A stretch of DNA of 64,000 nt from positions 4,447-68,446 of the IMG/VR virus record IMGVR_UViG_3300037117_000143, one strand, 5' to 3'. This document shows, in pieces, positions 1-64,000 of this stretch (positions within the stretch are counted from its first letter, which is position 1; the number at the start of each line of letters is the position of its first letter). The position numbers were made by a program, and so were the translations under genes. The notes under the pieces were generated by a model. That model was not told the origin of the DNA. It saw only the letters and a list, made by a program, of their open reading frames with translations, and did not search any database. This DNA comes from a virus.

Positions 1-112
1 CCAGGGTACTGCGGAGAAGCAGCTGGTAATCTCGTTTGGGTTCAAGGACCGTGAGGCGTGTTTCGGCACCATCCTGCTCTCAGATGTGGAGACGTTCCTT
101 GGCGCGAGTTAA
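1..112 (+). CDS. C-terminal fragment of a gene running in from outside the window; probable glycosyltransferase-associated beta-propeller domain
   Basis: Frame 2 is open from base 2: QGTAEKQLVISFGFKDREACFGTILLSDVETFLGAS*. The LVISFGxxD blade resembles GH130-like propeller C-termini. It overlaps the next gene's TTG start. Confidence 0.45.
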   Translation, partial: QGTAEKQLVISFGFKDREACFGTILLSDVETFLGAS

Positions 113-779
113 AGTTCGTGTAGTCACCGCGTTCGTTCCGATCCCGGGCCACCCGCGCCCGCTGGCGGAGTACGAAGCGCTTGGTCAAAAGCTGAGCGGC
201 GCGCTTGGTCTTGCCGATCTTGCTGTCTACTATGACCGGATACCCGATCTCTGGTTGACCAAGTTCCTCGAGAAGTTGCCGTTTATGGAGCCCCCACTTA
301 GCTGGGCCACAGGCGACAACCCGAAGAAGAACAGCTTGGAGTACCATTGTGTCCAGCACCAGAAGTTCGAGTGGCTCGCGCGTGCAGCTAACGAAGATCA
401 GGAATCCGATACATTCGTATGGATGGATTACGGGATTTGTTCCCAGCCCGGCATCACCGGTGAGGTTGTCCAGGACTTACTTGGAAAGATACGAAAGAAT
501 GACTTTGCCATGCCCGGCTGCTGGGGGCCGACCCCTGAACCCATGGACGCATTCCCATGCTGGCGCTTCTGCGGCTCCCTGATGGTCGTACCGCGCGCAG
601 ACACGCACCGGATGCTGCAAATAGTGCAAGCGGTTACGCGCCTCTACGTGCGTTCCATGAAAAAGGTGACCTGGGAAGTCAATATGCTGGCCCGCTGCGA
701 GCCGATGCTGAAGAAGGTTGGCCTGCGCTGGTACCAAGCAGATCATAATGCCCTCCAATTTACTCGGTACGACCAATGA
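99..779 (+). CDS. WlaTC/HtrL-family glycosyltransferase-like protein
   Basis: Motifs VVTAF, QHQKFEWLARAA, FVWMDYGI, CWRFCGSL, WEVN, WYQADHN. TTG start at 99 after GGAGA. Confidence 0.7.
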   Translation: MARVKVRVVTAFVPIPGHPRPLAEYEALGQKLSGALGLADLAVYYDRIPDLWLTKFLEKLPFMEPPLSWATGDNPKKNSLEYHCVQHQKFEWLARAANEDQESDTFVWMDYGICSQPGITGEVVQDLLGKIRKNDFAMPGCWGPTPEPMDAFPCWRFCGSLMVVPRADTHRMLQIVQAVTRLYVRSMKKVTWEVNMLARCEPMLKKVGLRWYQADHNALQFTRYDQ

Positions 780-1159
780 AACGTACCCAGGCAACAAAGA
801 ATTGGTACAACAGAAATCGCGTATCAGAAAACGCCCGAAGTCGTGCGTACTACGCAGCAAACAAAAAGAAGATAGCGCTTGTCATGGCGCGCCGCCACTA
901 CATTCGGCTGTATGGCATTACGATCGCAGATCGCGATATTATGTTGGCTGCCCAAGGAAATGTGTGTGCCGCCTGCGGAAGTCCGGAACACGGCAATTCT
1001 TTGCCCGGTTGGGGCTGGGCTACTGACCACAACCACAAAACTGGGAAAGTTCGCGGGATCATCTGCTGCTCCTGCAACTTGACACTCGGGAATGCTCGTG
1101 AAGATACGAAGCGCTTGCGGCTTCTCGCTTTATATCTGGAGCGTCACTATGACCACTGA
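776..1159 (+). CDS. Endonuclease VII-type HNH homing endonuclease
   Basis: LYGIT...QGNVCAACG...DHNHKTGKVRGIICCSCN. Confidence 0.88.
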   Translation: MKRTQATKNWYNRNRVSENARSRAYYAANKKKIALVMARRHYIRLYGITIADRDIMLAAQGNVCAACGSPEHGNSLPGWGWATDHNHKTGKVRGIICCSCNLTLGNAREDTKRLRLLALYLERHYDH

Positions 1160-1853
1160 ATTGTGGACCATCTATCACGAGGCCAAGCCTCCAGTGCGTC
1201 CTGCCGGCGGGATCGTTAGACAGTACACGGTGCCCGCTCGCGGCAATATGTTGAGCTCACGCTTTGCTAGCATGAACGCATACTACGACGTGTGGCGCAT
1301 GCCGGCTATCCCCGGCATTATCGGTTTCCAGGCCTACCGCAAGCACTTCAACTTTCGCGATCACCACCTGACCGGCTGGGAAGAAGTCGCACCGAAGACT
1401 TTCTACGAGTACCAGGACTGGCTGTACAAATGGGATGGTGGCGCGATCGAGGACTTCCTGGACAAATATGACATGATCGTCCCGCCGCCGTTCGATCTTA
1501 CCGCGCAGGGAGGTTTAGACGAGGATTTTTGTCGGTCCCGTTCGTACGCTGACTGGGTGGCCTTTGTAAAGGTGGCGAGCAAATATCACGATTTTGACTA
1601 CAGCATCAACCACGTCACGAGCCACTGGTTCATTTGTAAGTGGGGCCTGTTCAGCGAGTTCATGGCCGTTTGGTGGAATGTGTTTAGGGAGTTAGAGCCA
1701 TGTATCGAGAGCAAAGATGCTGCGAGGAACATTCCTTACGCCTCACGGGCGTTGGACTTCCTCACAGAAAGATTCTTTACCCTGTGGCTAGCGAGCCGGT
1801 CGGACCTCCGGACAAAAACTTTCCCGTTGATGATATCGTGGGACGCCCGATGA
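1149..1853 (+). CDS. DUF4422-like (GT-A, galactofuranosyltransferase-related) glycosyltransferase
   Basis: IIGFQAYRKHF, YDMIVP, FICKW..F..F..WW, R..DFLTERFFTLW. ATG at 1149; ATGA overlap with the next gene. Confidence 0.65.
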   Translation: MTTELWTIYHEAKPPVRPAGGIVRQYTVPARGNMLSSRFASMNAYYDVWRMPAIPGIIGFQAYRKHFNFRDHHLTGWEEVAPKTFYEYQDWLYKWDGGAIEDFLDKYDMIVPPPFDLTAQGGLDEDFCRSRSYADWVAFVKVASKYHDFDYSINHVTSHWFICKWGLFSEFMAVWWNVFRELEPCIESKDAARNIPYASRALDFLTERFFTLWLASRSDLRTKTFPLMISWDAR

Positions 1854-2476
1854 ACCCGATCATCCTGATCCACGCCACCCCTGCCGATGAGAGGCGCGGC
1901 CTTGTGCAGGCGATCAGGGAGACGTGGCTTGCCGGTTGGGGCGCTATTATCCCGCACCGCTTCATCTACGACCGTACTCGCACAGGCACGGTACAAGAAG
2001 ACGAGTGGGTATTTGACGTTGACCCAGGATATTGGGTAATGATGCGCAAGACACAGGCTGCGGTGACCTTGGCGGCCGCAAACGGATACTCACATGCCTT
2101 CGTTATCTGTTCCGACACTTACGTTGTTATCTCCCGCTTATTGGCTTCGGGATACGAGGACCATCACTACTCGGGACACCGAGCGGATGAGGGCCATGCT
2201 GGCGGCGGCTGCGGATACTGGCTTGATTTACGCGCCATGTATCGGATCATCGACGCCCGCGTCTTCAGCGACTACGAAGACCGGTGGGTCGGAATCGTCC
2301 TGAAAGAGGCCGGCATCGAGTGTTTCCACGATCCCAGATATTGGGGGGCTGTGCATCCGTATCTGGATGGGATCATAACGGTGCATCTGCACCAAGGTGA
2401 CGGGGTGCTAGATCCACAAGCACTCCGTGATCAGCACACGGCTTTCAGGACGGACGGTGAAGTATGCGCGCATTAA
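1850..2476 (+). CDS. GT31/Fringe-like glycosyltransferase
   Basis: R..AIRETW, KTQA, degenerate DxD (CSDTYV), GGGCGYWL, EDRWVG..L, ITVHL. Confidence 0.7.
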   Translation: MNPIILIHATPADERRGLVQAIRETWLAGWGAIIPHRFIYDRTRTGTVQEDEWVFDVDPGYWVMMRKTQAAVTLAAANGYSHAFVICSDTYVVISRLLASGYEDHHYSGHRADEGHAGGGCGYWLDLRAMYRIIDARVFSDYEDRWVGIVLKEAGIECFHDPRYWGAVHPYLDGIITVHLHQGDGVLDPQALRDQHTAFRTDGEVCAH

Positions 2477-3474
2477 TCACTGGAGCCGGCGGTTCAATCG
2501 GCTGCCACGTCCTTCGCCATCTTATGGCTAACACCGACTGGGATATCATCGCTATAGACAGTTTTCGCCACAAGGGTCTTACAGATCGAATTGAACGAGT
2601 AACGTTCAAGCACCCAGAGACACGAGAGCGGCTTAGCGTGTTTACGCACGACCTGCAGGCACCGTTCAGCCCCATGCTCACCAAGAAAATAGGCCATGTG
2701 GACTACATTTTTAATTTAGCGGCGATGTCAGATGTGGACGATTCGCTTGAGCATCCCTACTTCAATATCCGAGCCAATTGTGAGATCATGCTTAATGTCC
2801 TCGAATACGCCAGACAGGTCAAGCCTAAGGCCTTCCTGCACGTAAGCACTGACGAGGTTTTCGGGCCTAGCGACGGTGAGCGCTACCACCCCGAGTGGGA
2901 TGCCATTATCCCTTCTAATCCATATTCGGCATCCAAAGCGGCACAGGAAGCGTTTGCGTGCGGCTACTGGAGAGCATACCAATTGCCATTGATTCTCACA
3001 AATTTCATGAATCAGTTTGGCGAAATGCAAAGTGTTGCCAAGTTCCCCGCGATCTGCATTCGGAAGATCATGCGCGGCGAGACGGTGACGATCCACGGCT
3101 CACCCGATGCAATCGGCTCGCGTTTCTACATGCACGCGCGCAACGCGGCCGACGCCATGTTGTTCCTCGTTAAAAAGACTATGCCCTACCTCCACGAAGA
3201 GGGTGAGGTCGATCGTCCTGACCGCTACAACGTTGTCGGTAGCCAGCGCGTTACCAATTTAGATTTCGCCAAACTAGTTGCGAAATATCTCGATAAACCC
3301 TTGCATTTTAATTGGTCCGACTTTAAGGTCGCTAGGCCTGGGCACGATTGGCACTACGGTTTAGATGGAACGAAGCTACACGATCTTGGTTGGTATCCCC
3401 CGATCTCGTTTGAAGAGTCTCTGCAAAATACTGTGGCCTGGTATCAAAGGAATAAATCGTGGCTAGACATATAA
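2464..3474 (+). CDS. rfbB: dTDP/NDP-glucose 4,6-dehydratase (extended SDR)
   Basis: GAGGSIG Rossmann motif, LAAMSDVD.S, STDEVFG, PSNPYSASKAAQE, RPGHDWHY.LD..K. Confidence 0.85.
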   Translation: MRALITGAGGSIGCHVLRHLMANTDWDIIAIDSFRHKGLTDRIERVTFKHPETRERLSVFTHDLQAPFSPMLTKKIGHVDYIFNLAAMSDVDDSLEHPYFNIRANCEIMLNVLEYARQVKPKAFLHVSTDEVFGPSDGERYHPEWDAIIPSNPYSASKAAQEAFACGYWRAYQLPLILTNFMNQFGEMQSVAKFPAICIRKIMRGETVTIHGSPDAIGSRFYMHARNAADAMLFLVKKTMPYLHEEGEVDRPDRYNVVGSQRVTNLDFAKLVAKYLDKPLHFNWSDFKVARPGHDWHYGLDGTKLHDLGWYPPISFEESLQNTVAWYQRNKSWLDI

Positions 3475-4721
3475 ACACTACGCACGGTCGAGCTGAGATA
3501 ACCCGATGCGAGGTGTGCGGCAACAATAACCTGCCAACCGTTTTCGACCTCGGCATGCACCCGCTGCCGGACGACTTGGTGAAGATCGGCGACGATCGCG
3601 TCTGCGCCGAGTACCCACTCGAGGTTCTATTCTGCGATCGTTGTAAGACAGCGCACCAGAAATACCAGCTCCCACGGGAGCAGCTTTTTTTCCCGGAGTA
3701 TCACTACCGCGGCGGCCAGACCCAGGATGTGCTCTCGGGCATGGAGCAACTCGTCGACTCGGTTGAAGAGCATTTCTCCGTCCGCGGCGCGCGCGTGCTG
3801 GACGTCGGTTGTAACGATGGCAGCCTGCTCGATGCGTTCCGCCGGCGCGGGGTCATCACGTCTGGGATTGAGCCGACCGATGCTGCCAAGGAAGCCCAGG
3901 AGAAGGGTCACGCTGTCATGCATACGTTCTTCGATTGTCAATCCGCGGTTGACTATCTGAGGCATCACCTGCCGCCGGACGTCATCACGTTCACGAACGT
4001 GTTCGCGCACATTGAGGATCTGGAAGAGTTGCTCGCGGCGCTGCGGATTATTAAGGCGCCATATACGCGTATCGTGGTTGAGAATCACTACCTTGGCTCC
4101 GTGCTCGATCGACACCAGTTTGACACGTTCTATCATGAGCACCTGCGCACCTACAGCTTTACTTCGTTTCTGCACATCGCCTTAAAATTGGATATGCGCG
4201 TTAGCACCGTGGAATTCCCCGCGCGCTACGGCGGCAATATTCGCGTGTTCATGGAGCCCGGTGAGGCGGTCCATGTAAGCGGCGAAGAGAGAGTGCTAGC
4301 CCGCGAGGAGAAGTTCGGCGATCGTCTGCAACATCTGAACACGCAGGTGGCGCACTGGGCGTCTAAAAAGCGTTCTAAACTAATAGGGTATATTATGGCG
4401 GACTACCCGGCCGTCACACCGCTCTCCGCTGTTGCCTTCCCCACGCGCGCATCAATCCTGATCCGCCTTCTCTACTTAAACGAGGAGCACATTGCCGCTG
4501 TGTACGAGAAGGAAGGGTCGAAGAAGATCGGATACTACGTGCCGGGCACGCGCATTCCAATTTTATCGGATAGCGGTGGGGACCTTGGAATTAGCCGAAT
4601 GGCTGGTCCACTTCTAAACTTGGCGTGGCACATTCCTGAAGAAATCGACAAACGCTGGCGCGGCACCCTTGACTACCACGGGGAGTTTATTCAGGTCATC
4701 GCGGAAGAGGATTTCAAATGA
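3459..4721 (+). CDS. NDP-hexose C-methyltransferase (Zn-binding N-terminus plus class I SAM domain)
   Basis: CEVCG, DLGMHPL, CDRC, VLDVGCNDGSLL, GIEP, TNVFAHI, QFDTFYHEH, YGGNIRV, KIGYYVPGTRIPI, LAWH. Confidence 0.88.
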   Translation: MARHINTTHGRAEITRCEVCGNNNLPTVFDLGMHPLPDDLVKIGDDRVCAEYPLEVLFCDRCKTAHQKYQLPREQLFFPEYHYRGGQTQDVLSGMEQLVDSVEEHFSVRGARVLDVGCNDGSLLDAFRRRGVITSGIEPTDAAKEAQEKGHAVMHTFFDCQSAVDYLRHHLPPDVITFTNVFAHIEDLEELLAALRIIKAPYTRIVVENHYLGSVLDRHQFDTFYHEHLRTYSFTSFLHIALKLDMRVSTVEFPARYGGNIRVFMEPGEAVHVSGEERVLAREEKFGDRLQHLNTQVAHWASKKRSKLIGYIMADYPAVTPLSAVAFPTRASILIRLLYLNEEHIAAVYEKEGSKKIGYYVPGTRIPILSDSGGDLGISRMAGPLLNLAWHIPEEIDKRWRGTLDYHGEFIQVIAEEDFK

Positions 4722-5290
4722 CGTCGCTATGCGAGCTCAGCCGGAAGTATGGCACCGACAAGGGTGGCGTGATGGAACCGACGCCGAATCATCGCGCCAA
4801 CCTGTTCCACGACTACACGCCGATCTACTACGACCTGATGAAGGACTGGGCGTCGGAGGCGTGGAACATTCTCGAGATTGGCGTTGCCGAGGGGCGCAGC
4901 GCGCGCATGTGGGCCGAGTTCTTCCCGAACGCGAAGATAACCGGGTTCGATATTGACCCGAAGAGCCTAGAAATTAAGGAGAACCGGATCCGCACCTTCT
5001 ACTGCGACCAGAGCGATAGTCGGTCTATCGCCAAGGCCCTCGGTGCTTCGTACAAACGGAACAAGAGCCTTTTTGACTACATCATCGATGACGGCTCTCA
5101 TATTTACGGGCATCAGATTATAACAATGCTTGGTCTGCTGCCAACCCTCAAATCCCATGGCATCTACTTCATTGAAGACCGCATTGACGAGGCGCCACCA
5201 GTTGAAGCTCCACAGGGCTGGACTAACAAGGTCTTTCGCTGGACCGATAAACCCCACAGCATGCTGCAAGTTATCAGGAGAGTTCAGTGA
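4718..5290 (+). CDS. Class I SAM-dependent methyltransferase (sugar O-methyltransferase-like)
   Basis: YGTDK, HDYTPIY, ILEIGV, W.EFFPNAKITGFDI, DQSD, FDYIIDDGSH, YFIED. Confidence 0.8.
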   Translation: MTSLCELSRKYGTDKGGVMEPTPNHRANLFHDYTPIYYDLMKDWASEAWNILEIGVAEGRSARMWAEFFPNAKITGFDIDPKSLEIKENRIRTFYCDQSDSRSIAKALGASYKRNKSLFDYIIDDGSHIYGHQIITMLGLLPTLKSHGIYFIEDRIDEAPPVEAPQGWTNKVFRWTDKPHSMLQVIRRVQ

Positions 5291-6252
5291 AGCGCTTCAA
5301 AGGCAAGACAGTCCTGATCACCGGCGCTGCCGGCTTTCTCGGTCGCCACTTGACCAAGAAATTCAAAGAGCTAGGCGCTCACGTTTACTCGCTCGACAAC
5401 TATATCACCGGTGCCGAGCATGACGAGTCAATTATGCCCGCTGACGTTACCAACCACACGGTGTTCGATGGTGCGCTCCACTACATCCTCCACGCCGCCG
5501 GCATCGCGTCTCCGGTTTTTTACGCCCAACACCCGCTGGAGACGATCGACGTTGCCGTGAAGGGCACGCGTAACATGCTTGTCCTCGCCGAGATGCATCC
5601 AGAGCTGGAAGGCTTCCTGTATTTCAGCTCGAGTGAGATCTATGGAGGTCCTCATGTCGTACCTACACCCGAAACGTACCGTGGAAATGTTAGCTGTACG
5701 GGGCCAAGAGCGTGTTATGATGAATCAAAGCGACTTGGGGAGACCCTATGTTCTATATACCACCAACAATACGGAGTTCCCGTTAGAACTGTTCGCCCAT
5801 TCAATATATTTGGGCCTGGCATGTCCCATGCGGATCGACGTGTCGTGCCCATGTTCACCTACGAGGCTCTTAATGATCGCCCTCTCCCTCTGTTTCGCGA
5901 TGGCAGGCAGACGCGTACGTTTTGCTATATCACCGATGCGATTGATGGATTTCTCAAGGTACTTTTGGACGGGCGCATAGGTGAGGCCTATAATATCGGC
6001 AACCCGAGCCCCGAGATTTCTATGCGAGATCTAACGCTCCTCTTCAAAGACTTCTTCCCGAAGTCGACCTACAAATCCATGCCATATCCCGACGAGTATC
6101 CGACCGACGAGCCCTTGCGTCGCTGTCCCGATGTCGTAAAAGCGTGGCGTGATGTCGGTTATCAGCCGCAGTGGACGCTTGCGCGCGGGCTCTGTGAATT
6201 CATCGAGTGGGCGCAGGAACAACCTTCCTATCGGGACTTAACGATTTCTTGA
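5287..6252 (+). CDS. UDP-glucuronate decarboxylase (UDP-xylose synthase)-like SDR
   Basis: GAAGFLG, LDNYITG, IASP..Y, SSSEIYG, GNVSCTGPRACYDESKR, QTRTFCYI.D, YNIGNP, DEPLRRCPD. Confidence 0.85.
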   Translation: MKRFKGKTVLITGAAGFLGRHLTKKFKELGAHVYSLDNYITGAEHDESIMPADVTNHTVFDGALHYILHAAGIASPVFYAQHPLETIDVAVKGTRNMLVLAEMHPELEGFLYFSSSEIYGGPHVVPTPETYRGNVSCTGPRACYDESKRLGETLCSIYHQQYGVPVRTVRPFNIFGPGMSHADRRVVPMFTYEALNDRPLPLFRDGRQTRTFCYITDAIDGFLKVLLDGRIGEAYNIGNPSPEISMRDLTLLFKDFFPKSTYKSMPYPDEYPTDEPLRRCPDVVKAWRDVGYQPQWTLARGLCEFIEWAQEQPSYRDLTIS

Positions 6253-31180: not shown

Positions 31181-34163
31181 CCTTAAGCCGATCGGCATCG
31201 TTGCGCTTCTTGATTTCCGCCGCAGGGGTGTACGCTTGCGCTGTTTCATCCAACCAGCTGTCCTGTGGGACAGGGATCTCCAACAGGCGTTCTTGTCCAC
31301 CTTGGAATAGGGTACCTGCAGCGAGGTTTGCTCGCCCATCCCGCATTTTATAGAACGTGCGCAAGCCCGCCATGACCATGCTCGGGCTGTGCTTCGTTTT
31401 GTGCAGATGATCGATAAATTGTTTCCGAGAAATTCGCAGCAAGTGCTCGTCAAGCACGAACTGGACATGGATCGGCGCATCAGTGTGTTCCGGGCCGCCA
31501 ACAAAACCAACCTGCTTGCTACGGCCGCCAGCGCCGCGCACCATATCACGGGTTCTGATTGTATTGCCGGCCATGGCTTTGATGAAATGCGTCAAGGCAG
31601 CGGTGATATTTTCCTCCGAGTCTCCGATCAAATCTTCCGAGACGACCCGGTCACGTATGGCTTTGTAGGAGTCGACGAGGAATACGTGAATTTCTTCAGT
31701 GTTGAAGCTAGCTCCAATTGTATTAGCCAATCGAGCACCTGCCAATATTGTGGTGGCAATCGCGAGCCAGAACCTCTCATCCGGCTTGTACGCGACTTCG
31801 TCCGCGAGCTTCTTTTGTGTGTCTGTGACAAATTCCTGCATGGCCTCCGGGTTTGACAGCATGACCTTGGAATAGCGTTCTCCCATTCGCCCATAGTTGG
31901 TCTCCAACTGCTGCTGTAGAATAGTCGCCGCCCACTCCTCGATGCGGCCGGGCGTATTGTCGTCATTCTTGGGAACAAGGAATTCAAAAGTGCGGTAGAT
32001 GCCGGCGGCGTTGCTCTGCTGGTGATCAACCATGTAATCGAACAGACTAACGTTGGAGCAGATCGTCAGCAGCGACTGCCAGCTTCCCACCACCTTCTGC
32101 GAGCGGTCGACATTCATCTTGCCGCCGTCCTTGCCTTGGGTGATATCGACAAGAACCTCGGCGGCCTTCTCGATGGCCTTGGGCAGCGAGACGTCGTCCC
32201 AATAGCACGGCAGGTTATTCAGCTCCGCCATCTTGCCGCGCATGCTGTTCTGTGACGAGCTGGCTACTTCCTTAGTCAATTTCGGATTGCCCCAGACAGC
32301 GGCGCCCACATTCAACGCAGTAGATTTGTTCCCCCCGCTCTGCGAGTACGCGACTAGCGCCCCCGAATAGTGCCCGGTGAAGTGGAGCAAAGGCGATGCA
32401 AAGGCCGCCGCGGCAATACATTCGATCGCCGGCCGATGTTGGTCCGTCACCAGCTTGAGGGCTTTGAACCACGTCTCTATGTCTCCCTGTGGGGTGTAGA
32501 GGGCGCGCACGGCGGGATCACCTGAAGATGATTTCATTGTTGTTCCATCCTTCTTGTTGATGATGCCACCGTAGGCCCAGCCCGTGTCATGGCCGGCTTC
32601 CTTGTACCAGCCATAGGGTACGGTATCACGGGCGGCTTTCATACTGTTGAACCTGTCCATCCACGCCACCATAAACTCCATCAAAAGCTTCGTTGTACCT
32701 GGGCTGTAGAGTACGAATTGTTTTGACAGCGATCCGCCTAGCATGGCCGCTGACGCCAAATCTTTGCTCTCGACCAACACTTCTACCGTGCTACCTTTAT
32801 CCGTAGAAGCGGTGAAATTCAAGCCTCTATTCTTCTGCGTCCAGGGCTCTGTGATCACGCAGTGGAAGAGCGGTATGTCGACCGGCACGGCAGCCGTGCG
32901 CGTTTTCACTATGCGCCCCACGTTGTTGGTGGAGTACCCCAAAGGCAGCTGGAGGTCGTTGGCGAGAGTGCTAGGATTTGAACCTAGATCCGCGGTGGAG
33001 GCCGCTGTTCTATCCGGTTGAACTACACTCCCAAGAATATTAAGCGGCGACTTAATCGTGCCTTTAAGCGGGCAGGCAGCGCACTGTTTGGAACCATATT
33101 GCTCAAACGTCCTACAAGAGGGCCAGCCAAGCTTCTTTTCTTGCTGCTCCGCTTCCTTGCGGTCGTACATCGCATCGGCACCCGCCTCGGTGTAATCCGC
33201 ATGGCCAGTGCTCAGCGTGTGGAAGAGCTCGCGGCCCTTCCGCATGAACGTCGTCGTGAGGGCTGTGAGCATCCACAGCCCCTGATCGTGGTATTTCCCT
33301 CCGGTCAGTATGGTGCCGCGCAGAAACGGGCATTGGTGGAACGCGGGCGCCGGATCTAGGAGATCAACTTCAACGGTCCCAATTTCTTTTTGGTACCCAG
33401 CGGTGAGGATATCGGGTGATCCGGCTTGCGGGGGAAGGTGGCAGAAGATCCACGCGCCAGTCTGAGCCCCCGCAGCCACTCGTTGTTGTCCGGGTACGGC
33501 TTTGATTCCGGCGAACGCTTGCTCGAAGTTGATGTCTTGCGGGGCGAGGAGGAGGAGTTTGACTTCGCGAGGGATTTGCTCTTTTTTATTGTAGGTGCCG
33601 GGGACGCGGAGAATTCGCGCGCAATCGATTGTAACCCCTGCGTCAAATCGGAGACCAAAATGTGTAGCTGCTGTTCGGAGTCCCTCGGCAAATAGGGTCC
33701 AACCCTCAACTGGTAACTCTTTAGAAGAGATCCAATAGCAGTGTACTCCACCTCCAGATCCAACAAGAGCTGTCGGGGAAGGTAAATTTTCGGCGGCGCA
33801 GAAGGCCTTGATTGCTTGGAGGGCTTCGGTGACACTGGCATATCCTTTCTCTTTGACATCTAGGTCAAGCCAAATGGCTTTAAGTGCAACCGTGTTGAGG
33901 TGATTTCGGAGTGCGTGCGCGCGACCATTGACTATTTTCCCTATGTCTTTCTGCCGGCCTAGGCAGAAGTAGATGTCCTTCGCCATGCCCGGATGCGTCT
34001 TGGCCCACTCGACACCTTTCATGAAGTCGGCGAGCGTCTGAAACGGCAGGCCGGCCATACCCTGCCGCTTCACCATAGAATAATGCAAGTTGATGTAGCC
34101 GGGTTCATCACCCGGCCACGCCATTACTCGCCTTAGAAATTCCGCAATACTCGGCGCCACCAT
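31161..34163 (-). CDS. Primase-polymerase / DUF927-type helicase fusion
   Basis: WLDLD, VGSGGGVHCYW, DCARILRVPGTYN; Zn motif C...CAACP; degenerate Walker A SQSGGNKST; QGKDGGKM. Confidence 0.88.
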   Translation of the reverse strand: MVAPSIAEFLRRVMAWPGDEPGYINLHYSMVKRQGMAGLPFQTLADFMKGVEWAKTHPGMAKDIYFCLGRQKDIGKIVNGRAHALRNHLNTVALKAIWLDLDVKEKGYASVTEALQAIKAFCAAENLPSPTALVGSGGGVHCYWISSKELPVEGWTLFAEGLRTAATHFGLRFDAGVTIDCARILRVPGTYNKKEQIPREVKLLLLAPQDINFEQAFAGIKAVPGQQRVAAGAQTGAWIFCHLPPQAGSPDILTAGYQKEIGTVEVDLLDPAPAFHQCPFLRGTILTGGKYHDQGLWMLTALTTTFMRKGRELFHTLSTGHADYTEAGADAMYDRKEAEQQEKKLGWPSCRTFEQYGSKQCAACPLKGTIKSPLNILGSVVQPDRTAASTADLGSNPSTLANDLQLPLGYSTNNVGRIVKTRTAAVPVDIPLFHCVITEPWTQKNRGLNFTASTDKGSTVEVLVESKDLASAAMLGGSLSKQFVLYSPGTTKLLMEFMVAWMDRFNSMKAARDTVPYGWYKEAGHDTGWAYGGIINKKDGTTMKSSSGDPAVRALYTPQGDIETWFKALKLVTDQHRPAIECIAAAAFASPLLHFTGHYSGALVAYSQSGGNKSTALNVGAAVWGNPKLTKEVASSSQNSMRGKMAELNNLPCYWDDVSLPKAIEKAAEVLVDITQGKDGGKMNVDRSQKVVGSWQSLLTICSNVSLFDYMVDHQQSNAAGIYRTFEFLVPKNDDNTPGRIEEWAATILQQQLETNYGRMGERYSKVMLSNPEAMQEFVTDTQKKLADEVAYKPDERFWLAIATTILAGARLANTIGASFNTEEIHVFLVDSYKAIRDRVVSEDLIGDSEENITAALTHFIKAMAGNTIRTRDMVRGAGGRSKQVGFVGGPEHTDAPIHVQFVLDEHLLRISRKQFIDHLHKTKHSPSMVMAGLRTFYKMRDGRANLAAGTLFQGGQERLLEIPVPQDSWLDETAQAYTPAAEIKKRNDADRLKVIRPDQ

Positions 34164-52559: not shown

Positions 52560-52751
52560 ATGGCCAAACCAGGTAAGCGCAAGTTCCCCCTCTGCGACGT
52601 CTGGGCGAAGGACATCCTAGCACCGTATCGCCGTGGGGGCTACGAGGCAAAATATAACCAGCTCGAGCAGGCGATCTACGAAGCGCTGGTGGAAGCGTGC
52701 CAACGTGGCACCCCGCTGCCGTTCGGTTATGTCGAAGCAGGGCCGGCCTGA
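52560..52751 (+). CDS. Hypothetical protein
   Basis: SD GAGGA; TGATG-coupled to the next gene. Confidence 0.6.
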   Translation: MAKPGKRKFPLCDVWAKDILAPYRRGGYEAKYNQLEQAIYEALVEACQRGTPLPFGYVEAGPA

Positions 52752-53608
52752 TGACCCCCCGAAAAATCCTGATTTGTGGTTTGCCTGGCAGTGGCAAGAC
52801 CACGCTGGCAAAATCGCTAGCACCGCTGATCAACGCCGTGCACTATGACGGCGACGAAGTTCGCTCCGTGACCCTCAACGACGACTTCAGCGTGGCTGGT
52901 CGCGCCAAACAGGTCGTCGACATGCGATGGTTGTGTGACAAGGTGAGAGCCGCGGGGCAGAACGTGATCGCCAGTTTTATTTGCCCGACTGCCGCTCTTC
53001 GCGAGGTCTTCGCTGCGGACTACACTATCCTCATGGACACCTCTCCCGACATTAAATACGCCGACACCAGGGTGATGTGGGAATATCCCAGCGATCCGGA
53101 CTGGACCGTTAGAGGGTTCGGAACGAGCACCGATTCGATCTCGTCCGTTGACATGATCGTTGCAGACTTGAACAAGCCAGCACCTTCCCCGTACGCGTGG
53201 AACAACGAAGCGCCAACAGGTTTGGTTCTTGGCAGGTTCCAGCCGTTCCATGCCGGGCATAAGGCGCTCGTCGATGAAGCGTTGAAGCGCTACCCGCAGG
53301 TGATGATCTGTGTTCGGTCCATGCCGGTATCTGACAAGAATCCATACACCTCGTTGCAGGCCCGCAACTTCATTTGGGAGTCCGTAGGTGATTACGGTGA
53401 CCGCGTGCGCGTGTTGCCTATGCCAAACATCGCCTCGGTCCTCTATGGCCGGGATGTCGGCTACAAGATCGAACGGGTGCACCTTGACACGGAGACAGAA
53501 TTGATATCCGCTACCGAGATACGAGGGCGGTACGGTCAGAATTCTATTCCGTCGGTCATCAAGGACTTCAATATGGATGACCCGCTACCAGAGGAACTGT
53601 ATCCATGA
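52751..53608 (+). CDS. cysC: Adenylyl-sulfate (APS) kinase fused to a HIGH-family nucleotidyltransferase
   Basis: GLPGSGKTT, DGDEVR, DFS..GR..Q, IASFICP, WEYP; then LGRFQPFHAGH and ISATEIR. Confidence 0.8.
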   Translation: MTPRKILICGLPGSGKTTLAKSLAPLINAVHYDGDEVRSVTLNDDFSVAGRAKQVVDMRWLCDKVRAAGQNVIASFICPTAALREVFAADYTILMDTSPDIKYADTRVMWEYPSDPDWTVRGFGTSTDSISSVDMIVADLNKPAPSPYAWNNEAPTGLVLGRFQPFHAGHKALVDEALKRYPQVMICVRSMPVSDKNPYTSLQARNFIWESVGDYGDRVRVLPMPNIASVLYGRDVGYKIERVHLDTETELISATEIRGRYGQNSIPSVIKDFNMDDPLPEELYP

Positions 53609-60560: not shown

Positions 60561-62867
60561 ATGTCGGACATGGCGCTTGGTCAGGCGGGGACACTTTCAG
60601 TCACGCCCGAGGCAGAACTACAGAAGCAGGACGCTGCCGCTGCCAACAGCGCGATGCCGCCACCCTCACAAGATCCACAGCAACTTGTTGGCTATATCAA
60701 GGGCCAATTTGACATTATGCGCAACCACCGGAACACGGCTTCCGGGTGGACGGAAGATCTCCTTGTCTGCCTACGGACGTTCAACGGGCAGTACGACGCC
60801 AGCAAGCTAAACGAAATCAGGAAGTTTGGGGGATCCGAGGTTTACGCGCGCATCACTGCGCAGAAAGTCCGCGCGGCCGCGTCGCTCCTTCGGGACATCT
60901 ATCTCGGCCAAGACATTCCGTGGGCAGTCCGCCCATCGACGAACCCGACCGTTCCACAGGAAATTCTGCAGGCGATCGATCAGCTGATGCAGGCAGAGAG
61001 CCAGCAAATTCAGCAGACGAGCGGTAAAGCTCCGCAGGCTACCGACGTGCAGAAGCGCAAGACTGCGTTGCTCGAGTCTGCGAACGATGCCGCTAAAAAG
61101 AAGGCCGTGCAGCAAGCGCGGGATAGCGGCGATAAAATAGAAGATATTCTGCGCGAGGGCGGCTTTTATACAGCGCTGTCCGCGTTCGTGGCCACGTTGC
61201 CAATTTTTCCGTTTTCGTGCATTTGTGGTCCCGAAGTTAAGGTTATCCCGACTGTAACGTGGCCGGCTGGTGGCGGCCAGCCTACAGTTGTTCAGACGCC
61301 CAAGCTTACCTGGCGTTGGGTAAACCCGTTCGATGTATGGTGGACGCCGGGCGTAGCGGATATAGCTAATGGTGACATCATTGAAAAACAGAGAATCACC
61401 CGCGCCGAGCTCAACGACGCACTAGACCTCCCTGGTTACAACCAGGAAGAAGTACGTGCTGTCTTGGACGAATACGGACGGGGCGGCCTATACGATAACT
61501 GGGACACTCCCGATGCCGAGAGGGCTGTTCTTGAGCGTCGGGAAAATCCTGCGTGGAACCGGAGTTCCATGCTCTCAATGATGGCTTTCACTGGCCACGT
61601 TCAGGGGCGGCTGTTGCAGGATTACGGGCTTGCGGTGCCCGACGCGCTCCGCGATTATTTCGTGCAGGTGTGGAGCATTGGCTCGCACGTCATCAAGGCG
61701 CAGATGTCGCCGAGCCCGCGCCAGCGCCACAACTACTACATTACCAGTTTCGAGAAGGCTCCTGGCTCCGTTCTTGGTCACAGCCTGACGGAGCTCATCG
61801 CTGACATTCAGGAGGTCGCAAATGCTACCCTACGTGCTCTGGTTAACAATCTTTCAATCGCTTCTGGACCCCAAGTTGTGGTCAATGACGACCGACTATC
61901 CCCGGATGAAACCGGAGAGGATATGTTCCCATGGAAGCGATGGCATGTACGGAACGACCCAGTATCCAACAACAACCAAGAGCCGATCACCTTCTTCATG
62001 CCGACGTCGAACTCCCAGCAATTGATCCAGGTGTTTCAGGCGTTCCAAGGATTTGCCGACGACATTTCAGCCATTCCCAAATATATTGGCGGCGATACGG
62101 GCGGTGGCGGTGCTGGGCGGACGGCGTCCGGCCTCGCGATGCTGATGGGGAACGCATCGAAGATACTTCAGACTGTGAGTGCCAACATCGATCGTGACGT
62201 GATGGAGCCGCTACTGCTCAACCTCACCGACATGATCATGTTGACCGATACGACCGGCCTACTCACCGGTGAGGAGAAGATTTCCGTACAGGGCGTGCAG
62301 GTTGCCGTCCAGCGTGAGACGCAGCGGCAACGCCAGATAGAGTATCTCCGCGAAACGCAAAATCCAACGGATTTGGGTATCATGGGGATTGCAGGCCGCG
62401 GTAAAGTGTTACGCGCTATCTCCCAAGACATAGGGTTGGCCGGCGAGGAAATCGTTCCGTCGGACGAAGATCTAGAGAAGAAACAGCAAGCGCAGGAGGC
62501 CCAACAGCAGGCCGGCACCGGTGCGATCGAAGCGATGGTCCAGAAAGGTGTGCAGCAGGGCGTTATGGCCGGCGTGCAGAAGATCACGTCTGAGCTCACT
62601 GCTGGCATCCTTGCGGCGAAATCAGGAATGTCGGAAATAGGTGGCGGCGGCACCGAACCAGTTGTACCGGGAGGACCCGCTACACAAGGACTACCTCCCC
62701 AACAAGCAGCGGCGGCTTCGCACATGCCCGGGCCTCCGGGATCACCGGGTAACCAACCGCCAAAAGGTGGGGCGGTAGGCGGAGGTATTGCGCCACAAAG
62801 CGCGACTGTGGTAGGGAGCACGCCAGGCCCCAATGCCCGGCACCAGATCAGTCCCGGCCCCGGATAG
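60561..62867 (+). CDS. Portal protein
   Basis: 768 aa; GSEVYARIT..K.RAA, VNPFD.WW.P, NNLSIASGPQVVVN, RTASGLAMLMGNASK, NID. Confidence 0.9.
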   Translation: MSDMALGQAGTLSVTPEAELQKQDAAAANSAMPPPSQDPQQLVGYIKGQFDIMRNHRNTASGWTEDLLVCLRTFNGQYDASKLNEIRKFGGSEVYARITAQKVRAAASLLRDIYLGQDIPWAVRPSTNPTVPQEILQAIDQLMQAESQQIQQTSGKAPQATDVQKRKTALLESANDAAKKKAVQQARDSGDKIEDILREGGFYTALSAFVATLPIFPFSCICGPEVKVIPTVTWPAGGGQPTVVQTPKLTWRWVNPFDVWWTPGVADIANGDIIEKQRITRAELNDALDLPGYNQEEVRAVLDEYGRGGLYDNWDTPDAERAVLERRENPAWNRSSMLSMMAFTGHVQGRLLQDYGLAVPDALRDYFVQVWSIGSHVIKAQMSPSPRQRHNYYITSFEKAPGSVLGHSLTELIADIQEVANATLRALVNNLSIASGPQVVVNDDRLSPDETGEDMFPWKRWHVRNDPVSNNNQEPITFFMPTSNSQQLIQVFQAFQGFADDISAIPKYIGGDTGGGGAGRTASGLAMLMGNASKILQTVSANIDRDVMEPLLLNLTDMIMLTDTTGLLTGEEKISVQGVQVAVQRETQRQRQIEYLRETQNPTDLGIMGIAGRGKVLRAISQDIGLAGEEIVPSDEDLEKKQQAQEAQQQAGTGAIEAMVQKGVQQGVMAGVQKITSELTAGILAAKSGMSEIGGGGTEPVVPGGPATQGLPPQQAAAASHMPGPPGSPGNQPPKGGAVGGGIAPQSATVVGSTPGPNARHQISPGPG

Positions 62868-63380: not shown

Positions 63381-63418
63381 TACGTTATGTCGGGAACAAT
63401 CTAGGAACATTGGCAAAA

Positions 63419-64000
63419 ATGATATATCATTTTGTGTCCGGTTTGCCCCGCTCTGGCAGCACCCTCCTTGCGGCCATCCTCCGCCAGAACCCACGTTTCC
63501 ACGCGGGCATCATCAGCCCGATGGGCCCGATGCTTTCCGCCATGCGCGCCAGTATGAGTCCGCAGCAGGAGACGCACGGCATGTGGACGGGTGACCAACA
63601 GACGTCTGTTCTGCGCAAGGTGTTCGACAACTACTATGAGGTTGACGCCACTGATCCGCGGGACGTGATCTTCGACACCAACCGCCGCTGGTGTGCCGAT
63701 TCGTCCGTTATAGCGCACTTATATCCTGCAAGTCGTATCATCTGTTGCGTGCGTGATCCCGTGGACGTGGTGAACAGCTTCGAACACTTGATCCGGAAAA
63801 ACCCGATTGCCGGCGCGGTCATTTGCAACAACCAGAATACGACAGTTTTCCAGCGCGTGCCGATCATCATGGCCGCCGATGGCGTTGTCGGGTACGCCCT
63901 GCAGGCGCTCCGCGATGCTCTGGCTGGTCCAGAGCGGGAGCGGTTGCTCGTTATTGAATATGCAGATCTTGCTTCCAAGCCGGCCGACGTAATGGCGTGG
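63419..64000 (+). CDS. Sulfotransferase (runs off the window end; absent from ORF track)
   Basis: MIYHFVSGLPRSGSTLLAAILRQNP (5'-PSB loop), FDTNRRW, IICCVRDP...VNSFE (3'-PB); SD AGGA. Confidence 0.88.
   Translation, partial: MIYHFVSGLPRSGSTLLAAILRQNPRFHAGIISPMGPMLSAMRASMSPQQETHGMWTGDQQTSVLRKVFDNYYEVDATDPRDVIFDTNRRWCADSSVIAHLYPASRIICCVRDPVDVVNSFEHLIRKNPIAGAVICNNQNTTVFQRVPIIMAADGVVGYALQALRDALAGPERERLLVIEYADLASKPADVMAW

Follow-up and report, generated by a model that had tools for sequence, protein, structure and literature searches.

A viral fusion of an APS-kinase-like domain with a small HxGH nucleotidyltransferase, a candidate compact PAPS synthase associated with sulfotransferases

Introduction

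Here we report a gene, P0001, that joins an adenosine 5'-phosphosulfate (APS) kinase-like domain to a small HxGH nucleotidyltransferase and that may encode a compact synthase of 3'-phosphoadenosine 5'-phosphosulfate (PAPS). The gene lies in a 64,000-nucleotide stretch of viral DNA (the window), which corresponds to bases 4447-68446 of the IMG/VR virus record IMGVR_UViG_3300037117_000143. The record comprises 68,446 bp, has 127-bp direct terminal repeats and is estimated to be complete. An earlier note on this DNA had proposed that the 285-residue protein supplies PAPS to a sulfotransferase of the same genome for sulfating a virion glycan. Phage cysC genes are widely reported and transcribed, e.g. 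62 cysC in 7,334 freshwater phage genomes, and are viewed in viromics as helping the host in assimilatory sulfate reduction; the main-text passages of that paper mention neither a fused transferase nor sulfotransferases (PMC10914622). A literature search turned up no account of either the fusion or a mini sulfurylase.

The fusion gene and its family

The open reading frame (ORF) of the fusion spans 52697-53608 (+) when counted from a GTG. We take the ATG at 52751 as the probable start, since an identical MTPRKIL opens the close homologues P0003-P0008 (Table 1). The fusion is no chance ORF, since the two-domain layout is common to 2823 relatives at E<=0.001 and since PHROG 10255, named only 'kinase', is matched at 7.1e-48 (P0001 residues 5-261 on profile positions 3-228 of 230). 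A 32-member alignment (A1) delineates a tightly conserved two-domain family whose invariants include the P-loop, D35, R38, F46, R51, P79, GRxQPxHxGH, R189, PN, YGR.VG and S253...R258, and the AlphaFold2 model obtained from A1 has a mean pLDDT of 87. The nearest clusters in the ESM Atlas are viral cytidylyltransferase-like and APS-kinase proteins. No match to cultured phages was obtained with the region by megablast, and the family is rare in a Rhizobiales sample (2/301 genomes). P0001 carries an additional C-terminal tail (residues 276-285, ending DPLPEELYP), which is absent in most relatives; P0021 ends almost identically, in DPLPKELLP.

Both halves noticed earlier were confirmed with Pfam. 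In the N-terminal half, APS_kinase (PF01583) matches residues 5-86 with 30.7 bits (cut-off 21.1) and covers profile positions 4-91 of 152 only. The A1 profile, compared with solved structures, finds APS kinases first, at 1e-14 to 1e-11 over residues 6-113 (2yvu 1.3e-14, PAPSS1 7e-14); NadR is reached only via its nicotinamide mononucleotide adenylyltransferase (NMNAT) part, and ATP sulfurylase entries only via their own APS-kinase-like domains. Foldseek with the whole model returned kinases only, led by APS kinases bound to APS (4fxp, 2ofw, 1m7g), with 1x6v_B in fifth place. The N-terminal NCBIfam matches are adenylyl-sulfate kinases, all far under cut-off. G15, K16, T17, D35, R38, F46 and R51 are invariant in 32/32 A1 sequences, and the D35/R38/F46/R51 stretch, which presumably lines the APS site, aligns with LDGDNIR..LGFS..DR of PAPSS1. 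From the profile and Foldseek matches, together with a gap at the position of the lid, we read the kinase half as what its sequence indicates it is: an APS-kinase derivative that has retained the APS-site stretch and lost the lid.

In the C-terminal half, CTP_transf_like matches residues 159-205 with 32 bits (cut-off 21), and the HxGH and S.T.IR ATP-binding motifs are present as GRFQPFHAGH and ISATEIR. The catalytic motifs of active HxGH transferases are all kept and are invariant in the 23 sequences of an alignment of this domain (A3). The best C-terminal NCBIfam matches are NMN adenylyltransferases, all below their cut-offs (38.3 vs 397, 35.8 vs 127 and 31.7 vs 181.2). The model of the transferase domain has a pLDDT of 80, and VIA-align, which is independent of Foldseek, ranked phosphopantetheine adenylyltransferase (PPAT) at Z 10.2, the MJ NMNAT at 9.6, NadM at 9.5, NadR at 9.1 and a Thermus ATP sulfurylase at 8.4. 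This last structure (1v47_B) superimposes on the domain model with a root-mean-square deviation of 4.0 over 120 residues and lies within about 2 Z of PPAT and NMNAT. Because NMNAT, PPAT and ATP sulfurylase share one superfamily fold, structure does not decide the substrate.

Sequence comparison sets the domain apart from NMNATs. When 23 family members were aligned with 30 NMNAT-like proteins from the genome loci, a segment of 17 columns was absent in 23/23 family members; its Trp, which at least 90% of the 30 share, presumably has a role in binding nicotinamide. The GSAQ of NMNATs was likewise absent in 23/23, with vRd standing in its place, and the C-terminal ~35 residues of NMNATs are missing from the family, which has the invariant arginines R189 and R234 of its own. 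Given these three differences, the transferase half is unlikely to be an NMNAT.

Association with sulfotransferases

Among 35 fusion-bearing viral records, Sulfotransfer_3 is present over cut-off in 5 and at E<=0.001 in 9, and Sulfotransfer_2 in 8 and 10, respectively, with 5-10 matches each in G001-G005. One or the other family is over cut-off in 12 of the 35 records, most of the remaining ones being fragments, and 5 of the 8 fusion-bearing records that are at least 90% complete are sulfotransferase-positive. An iterated local search recovered a sulfotransferase-like ORF in 24/79 viral loci, 16 within 2 kb, and in 0/45 control loci centred on more distant HxGH-domain matches; the latter are mostly archaeal NMNAT-like genes (30 with an NMNAT-like ORF) in genomes of different types, which makes this a rough control. 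In the reverse direction, 45 viral records with Sulfotransfer_2 and a length of at least 35 kb were examined; 11 hold a full-length fusion, a count in which G036, a near-twin of G002, is not independent. Among the other records there were one kinase half, one case of broken pieces and five short matches to the N-terminal kinase region only.

In several loci the two genes are neighbours. The gene directly upstream of the fusion in a Rhizobiales genome encodes a Sulfotransfer_1 protein (94 bits) in an overlapping ORF, while Sulfotransfer_3 genes occupy this position in L039 (65.7 bits) and L036 (62.2 bits) and a Sulfotransfer_2 gene in L031 (22.7 bits). In G011, one of the eight records that are at least 90% complete, a Sulfotransfer_2-like gene (22.7 bits) overlaps the start of the fusion. 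Two genes upstream of the fusion in Stenotrophomonas phage Bhz60 (Sanovirus) there is a short and weak Sulfotransfer_4 match (26.2 bits, residues 48-99). The cultured phage DLP6 has a Sulfotransfer_2 match; the cultured phage RsoM2USA, with the kinase only, has no sulfotransferase match. In a FastTree phylogeny built from 89 members of the family, the 29 loci linked to a sulfotransferase are spread over the tree (25 Fitch changes vs a shuffled mean of 24.8), so the link is not a single inherited cassette. One jackhmmer match, in L085, was a P-loop artefact overlapping the fusion ORF, and this locus was left out of the tree count.

Co-occurrence with sulfotransferases, which the earlier note had named as a check of its proposal, was borne out for four Pfam families, with exceptions among the complete phages (2/8). 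By the comparison of genomes, the fusion family travels with sulfotransferases of these four families in phages and bacteria.

Several further genes were seen near the fusion in relatives. In Sanovirus and Salvovirus phages (L001:4972-6735, L256, L257), the gene of a 192-aa protein with a short Sulfotransfer_4 match, a NADAR gene and the fusion follow each other, and a MazG-like pyrophosphatase is encoded a few genes before them. A DUF1501 protein (373 bits), of what we take to be an alkaline-phosphatase/sulfatase-like superfamily, adjoins the fusion in a 150-kb phage with seven Sulfotransfer_2 matches (L004:10877-12157). MazG-like, SAM synthetase (MetK-like by its N-terminus) and adenine-phosphoribosyltransferase-like genes, an adenosine-nucleotide theme as judged by eye, follow the fusion in L006:2229-4257 and four similar loci.

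Association with APS kinases and the SAR11 gene pair

An exhaustive search with the A3 profile recovered 3387 representative proteins, 1095 of them at E<=1e-10, in which the mini-transferase is standalone, C-terminal or N-terminal. In P0155 it precedes a canonical APS kinase (PF01583, 211.9 bits, profile positions 2-151 of 152), and it is likewise N-terminal to an APS kinase in P0246 and P0220. In P0130 and P0162 the mini-transferase is joined to fragments of chorismate synthase or 3-dehydroquinate synthase, as gene-call artefacts or real fusions. Three Peribacteria loci have a mini-transferase followed by an APS kinase (72-92 bits), once just past a Sulfotransfer_2-like gene, and these partner kinases show the same lid gap as the fusion family. 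In a cluster of a Flavobacteriaceae metagenome-assembled genome (L113:834-3847), a full-length APS kinase (97 bits) comes first, then the mini-transferase, then a pyruvate-kinase barrel protein of 335 aa and finally Sulfotransfer_3; the transferase of this cluster has a weak PF01747 match (18.2 bits, under the cut-off of 24.3).

No known ATP sulfurylase was seen in five complete phages (the present one, G001, G003, G005 and G049): they match neither PF01747 (Sat-type ATP sulfurylase) nor PF01507, and their only APS_kinase match is the fusion itself. PF01747 was also absent from 20 bacterial genomes bearing the family, and CysD was restricted to three large alphaproteobacterial genomes among these 20 (0/14 in SAR11). 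In Pelagibacteraceae (SAR11), the two domains are encoded by adjacent overlapping ORFs of 136 aa and 124-135 aa (e.g. L094:7992-8773; loci L089-L118), and in three genomes these ORFs lie ~2.4 kb apart. The SAR11 genomes with the pair have Sulfotransfer_3 over cut-off in 9/14 cases and AprA in 13/14. The conserved context of the pair also holds DMGDH-like, HalD-like and BT1 genes. Part of a published account reports that most SAR11 are without ATP sulfurylase (PMC10356861), and the mini-transferase could be this missing enzyme. Overall, the comparative genomics leaves a link of the fusion family to PAPS well supported.

The locus in the phage genome

The one-base overlap between the stop codon of the upstream 63-aa ORF and the start of the fusion suggests translational coupling of the two genes. 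The 114-aa ORF downstream, small, membrane-type and coupled translationally to the fusion stop, holds the position that DUF2061 has in most relatives and is unrelated to it; neither of these two ORFs has a Pfam family. DUF2061 (82 bits), a membrane protein of 65-78 aa, lies immediately downstream of the fusion in 45/82 loci (e.g. L056:10796-11008), and the titles and abstract openings of the literature on it contain nothing on sulfate activation. The other neighbours of the fusion are early-type genes (a GIY-YIG protein, a winged-helix regulator and endonuclease VII). A scan for promoters and terminators revealed nothing particular to the fusion gene. Elsewhere in the window, ARAGORN called a tRNA-like gene at 32960-33032 (-), with an anticodon call of only two bases (tc).

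Table 1. Features of the fusion locus and of the sulfotransferase and glycan region, in window coordinates.
Feature	Position	Strand	Characteristics
Upstream ORF, 63 aa	52560-52751	+	Upstream of the fusion; TGA stop shares one base with the fusion ATG
Fusion gene P0001	52751-53608	+	285 aa; APS-kinase-like domain, then mini HxGH nucleotidyltransferase
Kinase domain, residues 1-146	52751-53188	+	P-loop GLPGSGKTT, DGDEVR, F..S..GR stretch, FICPT; canonical lid missing
Mini nucleotidyltransferase, residues 155-270 (~115 aa)	53213-53560	+	GRFQPFHAGH, invariant R189, PN, YGRDVGY, ISATEIR
Downstream ORF, 114 aa	53605-53949	+	Hydrophobic N-terminus; ATG overlaps the fusion stop (ATGA)
Portal gene	60561-62867	+	Two genes upstream of the sulfotransferase; 168-aa ORF between
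Sulfotransferase	63410-64000, continuing past the window end	+	Sulfotransfer_3 55.5 bits, Sulfotransfer_1 34.5 bits; GLPRSGSTLL near the N-terminus
Tail end of glycan cluster	36-6252	+	Cluster begins at the sulfotransferase
NDP-sugar 4,6-dehydratase	2464-3474	+	Glycan cluster
C-methyltransferase	3459-4721	+	Glycan cluster
Methyltransferase	4718-5290	+	Glycan cluster
Epimerase	5287-6252	+	Glycan cluster

The sulfotransferase that had been noted in the same genome is real, and it is complete, at 263 aa, when the two ends of the record are joined at the 127-bp terminal repeat (circularised). It stands first in an ~11-kb block of collagen-repeat, glycosyltransferase and sugar-nucleotide genes (genome 328-10698, window -4118 to 6252), of which two collagen-repeat proteins and a GT2-TPR protein are encoded in the 4.4 kb of the record preceding the window. 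The block sits between the portal and the remaining head genes, including the capsid. Because the sulfotransferase heads a collagen-fibre/glycan cluster in this position, a role of the fusion and the sulfotransferase in morphogenesis is plausible.

The portal shares 53.5% identity with its counterpart in the Rhizobium phages RHph_TM27A/B, and we regard the phage as Rhizobium-type. In RHph_TM27A, three small ORFs and then one 343-aa ORF separate the portal from the capsid, and the collagen/glycan block is absent. Twenty-four portal relatives were examined, and the fusion family and Sulfotransfer_3 were both absent in all nine uncultured ones that are at least 90% complete; RHph_TM27A and phiM6 have neither the fusion nor a sulfotransferase. 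The two genes, which occupy separate modules of the present phage, are jointly present or absent in every complete genome of the lineage examined, a pattern that may reflect few evolutionary events. Among incomplete fragments, G420 has both (with the kinase half only), G414 only the fusion and G419 only the sulfotransferase. G420 is the closest uncultured relative (portal 93% identical); its kinase half (profile positions 1-139, G420:C1:10331-10741) lies in a 159-aa open frame of a 17-kb fragment that also bears the sulfotransferase, and the gene may be split or truncated.

Discussion

We lean towards the view that the fusion is a compact two-step PAPS synthase whose mini-transferase makes APS. 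The C-terminal mini nucleotidyltransferase would adenylylate sulfate (ATP + sulfate -> APS + PPi), the lid-less N-terminal domain would, by homology to APS kinases, phosphorylate the 3'-OH of APS to yield PAPS, and the phage sulfotransferase, to judge from its gene position, would spend the PAPS on sulfating a phage-made glycan or fibre. The earlier proposal of a bifunctional, PAPS-supplying enzyme thus stands in part: the association with sulfotransferases and APS kinases agrees with it, whereas the small domain turned out to be NMNAT/PPAT-like and not Sat-like. There is about an even chance that this NMNAT-derived domain of ~115 residues constitutes a so far undescribed, third class of ATP sulfurylase in addition to Sat and CysDN, which with the lid-less kinase would form the smallest known PAPS synthase, feed phage sulfotransferases and provide the ATP sulfurylase step of SAR11.

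A number of observations weigh against a PAPS synthase. The small domain is without a Sat signature, PF01747 being unmatched in the protein. The A3 profile matches the MJ0541 NMNAT (4.5e-9) and NadM, with PPAT and PanC weaker, and no ATP sulfurylase occurs among its 30 matches at E<=1. Foldseek with the domain model leads to NMNAT, NadM and PPAT, with ATP sulfurylase absent from the top 50, and in VIA-align ATP sulfurylase is just one of many HxGH folds (1v47_B, rank 6). The kinase half lacks the lid, a 20-column gap between the fourth strand and the YE.PE motif relative to the full-length Flavobacteriaceae APS kinase of L113, and it scores 25.9 bits with the NCBIfam CysC equivalog TIGR00455, well under the cut-off of 138.7. 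Kinase-only forms occur in RsoM2USA, Methylocapsa, G376 and one SAR11, and the neighbours of the SAR11 pair are Rieske, BHMT, M24, enoyl-CoA hydratase and CoA-binding genes, with no sulfation genes among them. In the present phage, the fusion lies in the early-gene region, 9.8 kb from the sulfotransferase and not adjacent to it. The two complete fusion records without a clear sulfotransferase are G015, with none of the four Pfam families, and G024, with a 14.3-bit match only. A sulfotransferase of the window's type was found in 9 of 50,697 cultured-phage records, none of the nine being among the 18 fusion-matching records, and the cyanophages S-SKS1, S-SRM01 and S-SCSM1 have such a sulfotransferase and no fusion match.

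Some of these points would be explained if only the kinase half took part in sulfate activation, converting host-made APS to PAPS, and the HxGH domain were regulatory or structural or adenylylated another small phosphate compound. The kinase-only relatives and the missing Sat signature agree with this explanation, as do the CysD of Methylocapsa (G099) and the possibility that SAR11 obtain APS via AprBA, which is present in 13/14 of the pair-bearing genomes. We nevertheless consider it unlikely, as the HxGH catalytic motifs are fully kept in the family and in phages, Alphaproteobacteria, Peribacteria and Bacteroidota the small domain recurs fused to APS kinases, in one order or the other, or encoded beside them, a pattern expected for consecutive steps of a pathway. 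A different product is conceivable as well, namely a PAPS-like donor other than PAPS (3'-phospho-nucleoside 5'-diphospho-X), by analogy with the O-methyl-phosphoramidate pathway of Campylobacter, one protein of which, Cj1415, we take to be a CysC homologue. There, according to part of a published account, Cj1415-Cj1418 make CDP-phosphoramidate 3'-phosphate (PMC11800397), and the family often occurs within glycan clusters (L084, L087, L114-L116). Such a donor appears distinctly improbable, given that the partner transferases come from four sulfotransferase families, that neither a glutamine kinase nor an amidohydrolase recurs as a partner among the neighbour clusters, and that the partner kinases in P0155 and L113 are high-scoring canonical APS kinases.

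Least probable of all, in our judgement, is a role in NAD or CoA salvage, of the NadR type (ribosylnicotinamide kinase with NMNAT) or the CoA-synthase type (PPAT with dephospho-CoA kinase), which we regard as very improbable. It would fit the best NCBIfam and PDB sequence matches of the C-terminal domain, which are NMNAT and NadM, the first rank of PPAT in VIA-align, the NADAR gene that adjoins the fusion in Sanovirus phages and the CoA-related genes near the SAR11 pair. On the other hand, all NMNAT model scores are far under cut-off, the Trp-bearing segment and GSAQ are missing, and the kinase matches APS kinases, with no ribosylnicotinamide-kinase domain or dephospho-CoA kinase among the 60 matches listed out of 100; moreover, the mostly NMNAT-like control loci are devoid of the sulfotransferases that accompany nearly a third of the fusion loci.

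If the small domain of the fusion activates sulfate, it would represent a third and very small enzymatic route to sulfate activation, which current annotation misses because the genes are labelled cysC, cytidyltransferase-like or kinase. Phage 'cysC' auxiliary genes would then in many cases serve the sulfation of glycans or fibres under phage control instead of aiding host sulfur assimilation, and there would be a candidate for the ATP sulfurylase step apparently lacking in SAR11. For the present phage, this would point to sulfated, glycosylated collagen-like virion fibres, which could affect adsorption. A compact PAPS-regenerating enzyme would also be practical for enzymatic sulfation.

Comparison with known systems

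The metazoan PAPS synthases PAPSS1/2 (1x6v, 1xjq) resemble the fusion in having an N-terminal APS kinase followed by an adenylyltransferase of the HxxH/HxGH superfamily, the order that had been pointed out in the earlier note, and the kinase domains are homologous. They differ from it in their length of ~620 residues and their Sat-type sulfurylase, whereas the second domain of the fusion has ~115 residues, is NMNAT/PPAT-like and has no match to PF01747, and the kinase of the fusion, unlike theirs, has no lid. The Sat-APS-kinase fusions of Aquifex aeolicus (2gks), Penicillium (1m8p/1i2d) and Thiobacillus (3cr8) also combine a sulfurylase and an APS-kinase(-like) domain in one chain, and their kinase-like domains match the A1 family profile. 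Their domain order, however, is the opposite, and their Sat-type sulfurylase domains align to the mini domain at the fold level only (Z 6.4).

The closest relatives of the small domain in both sequence and fold are the archaeal NMNAT/NadM proteins (1f9a, 1ej2, 2qjt), with which it has GRFQPFHxGH, the NP loop and S.T.IR in common. It departs from them by the absence of the Trp segment, GSAQ and the C-terminal helices and by its own invariant Arg residues, and its links to APS kinases and sulfotransferases are not shared by the control loci, which are mostly NMNAT-like (0/45). In Campylobacter jejuni, nucleotidyltransferase and 3'-kinase steps (Cj1415-Cj1418) likewise build a PAPS-like donor for a surface glycan, as described in part of the same account (PMC11800397). 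The Campylobacter pathway draws on CTP and phosphoramidate and depends on a glutamine kinase as well as a hydrolase, whereas the partners of the fusion are proteins of the sulfotransferase families.

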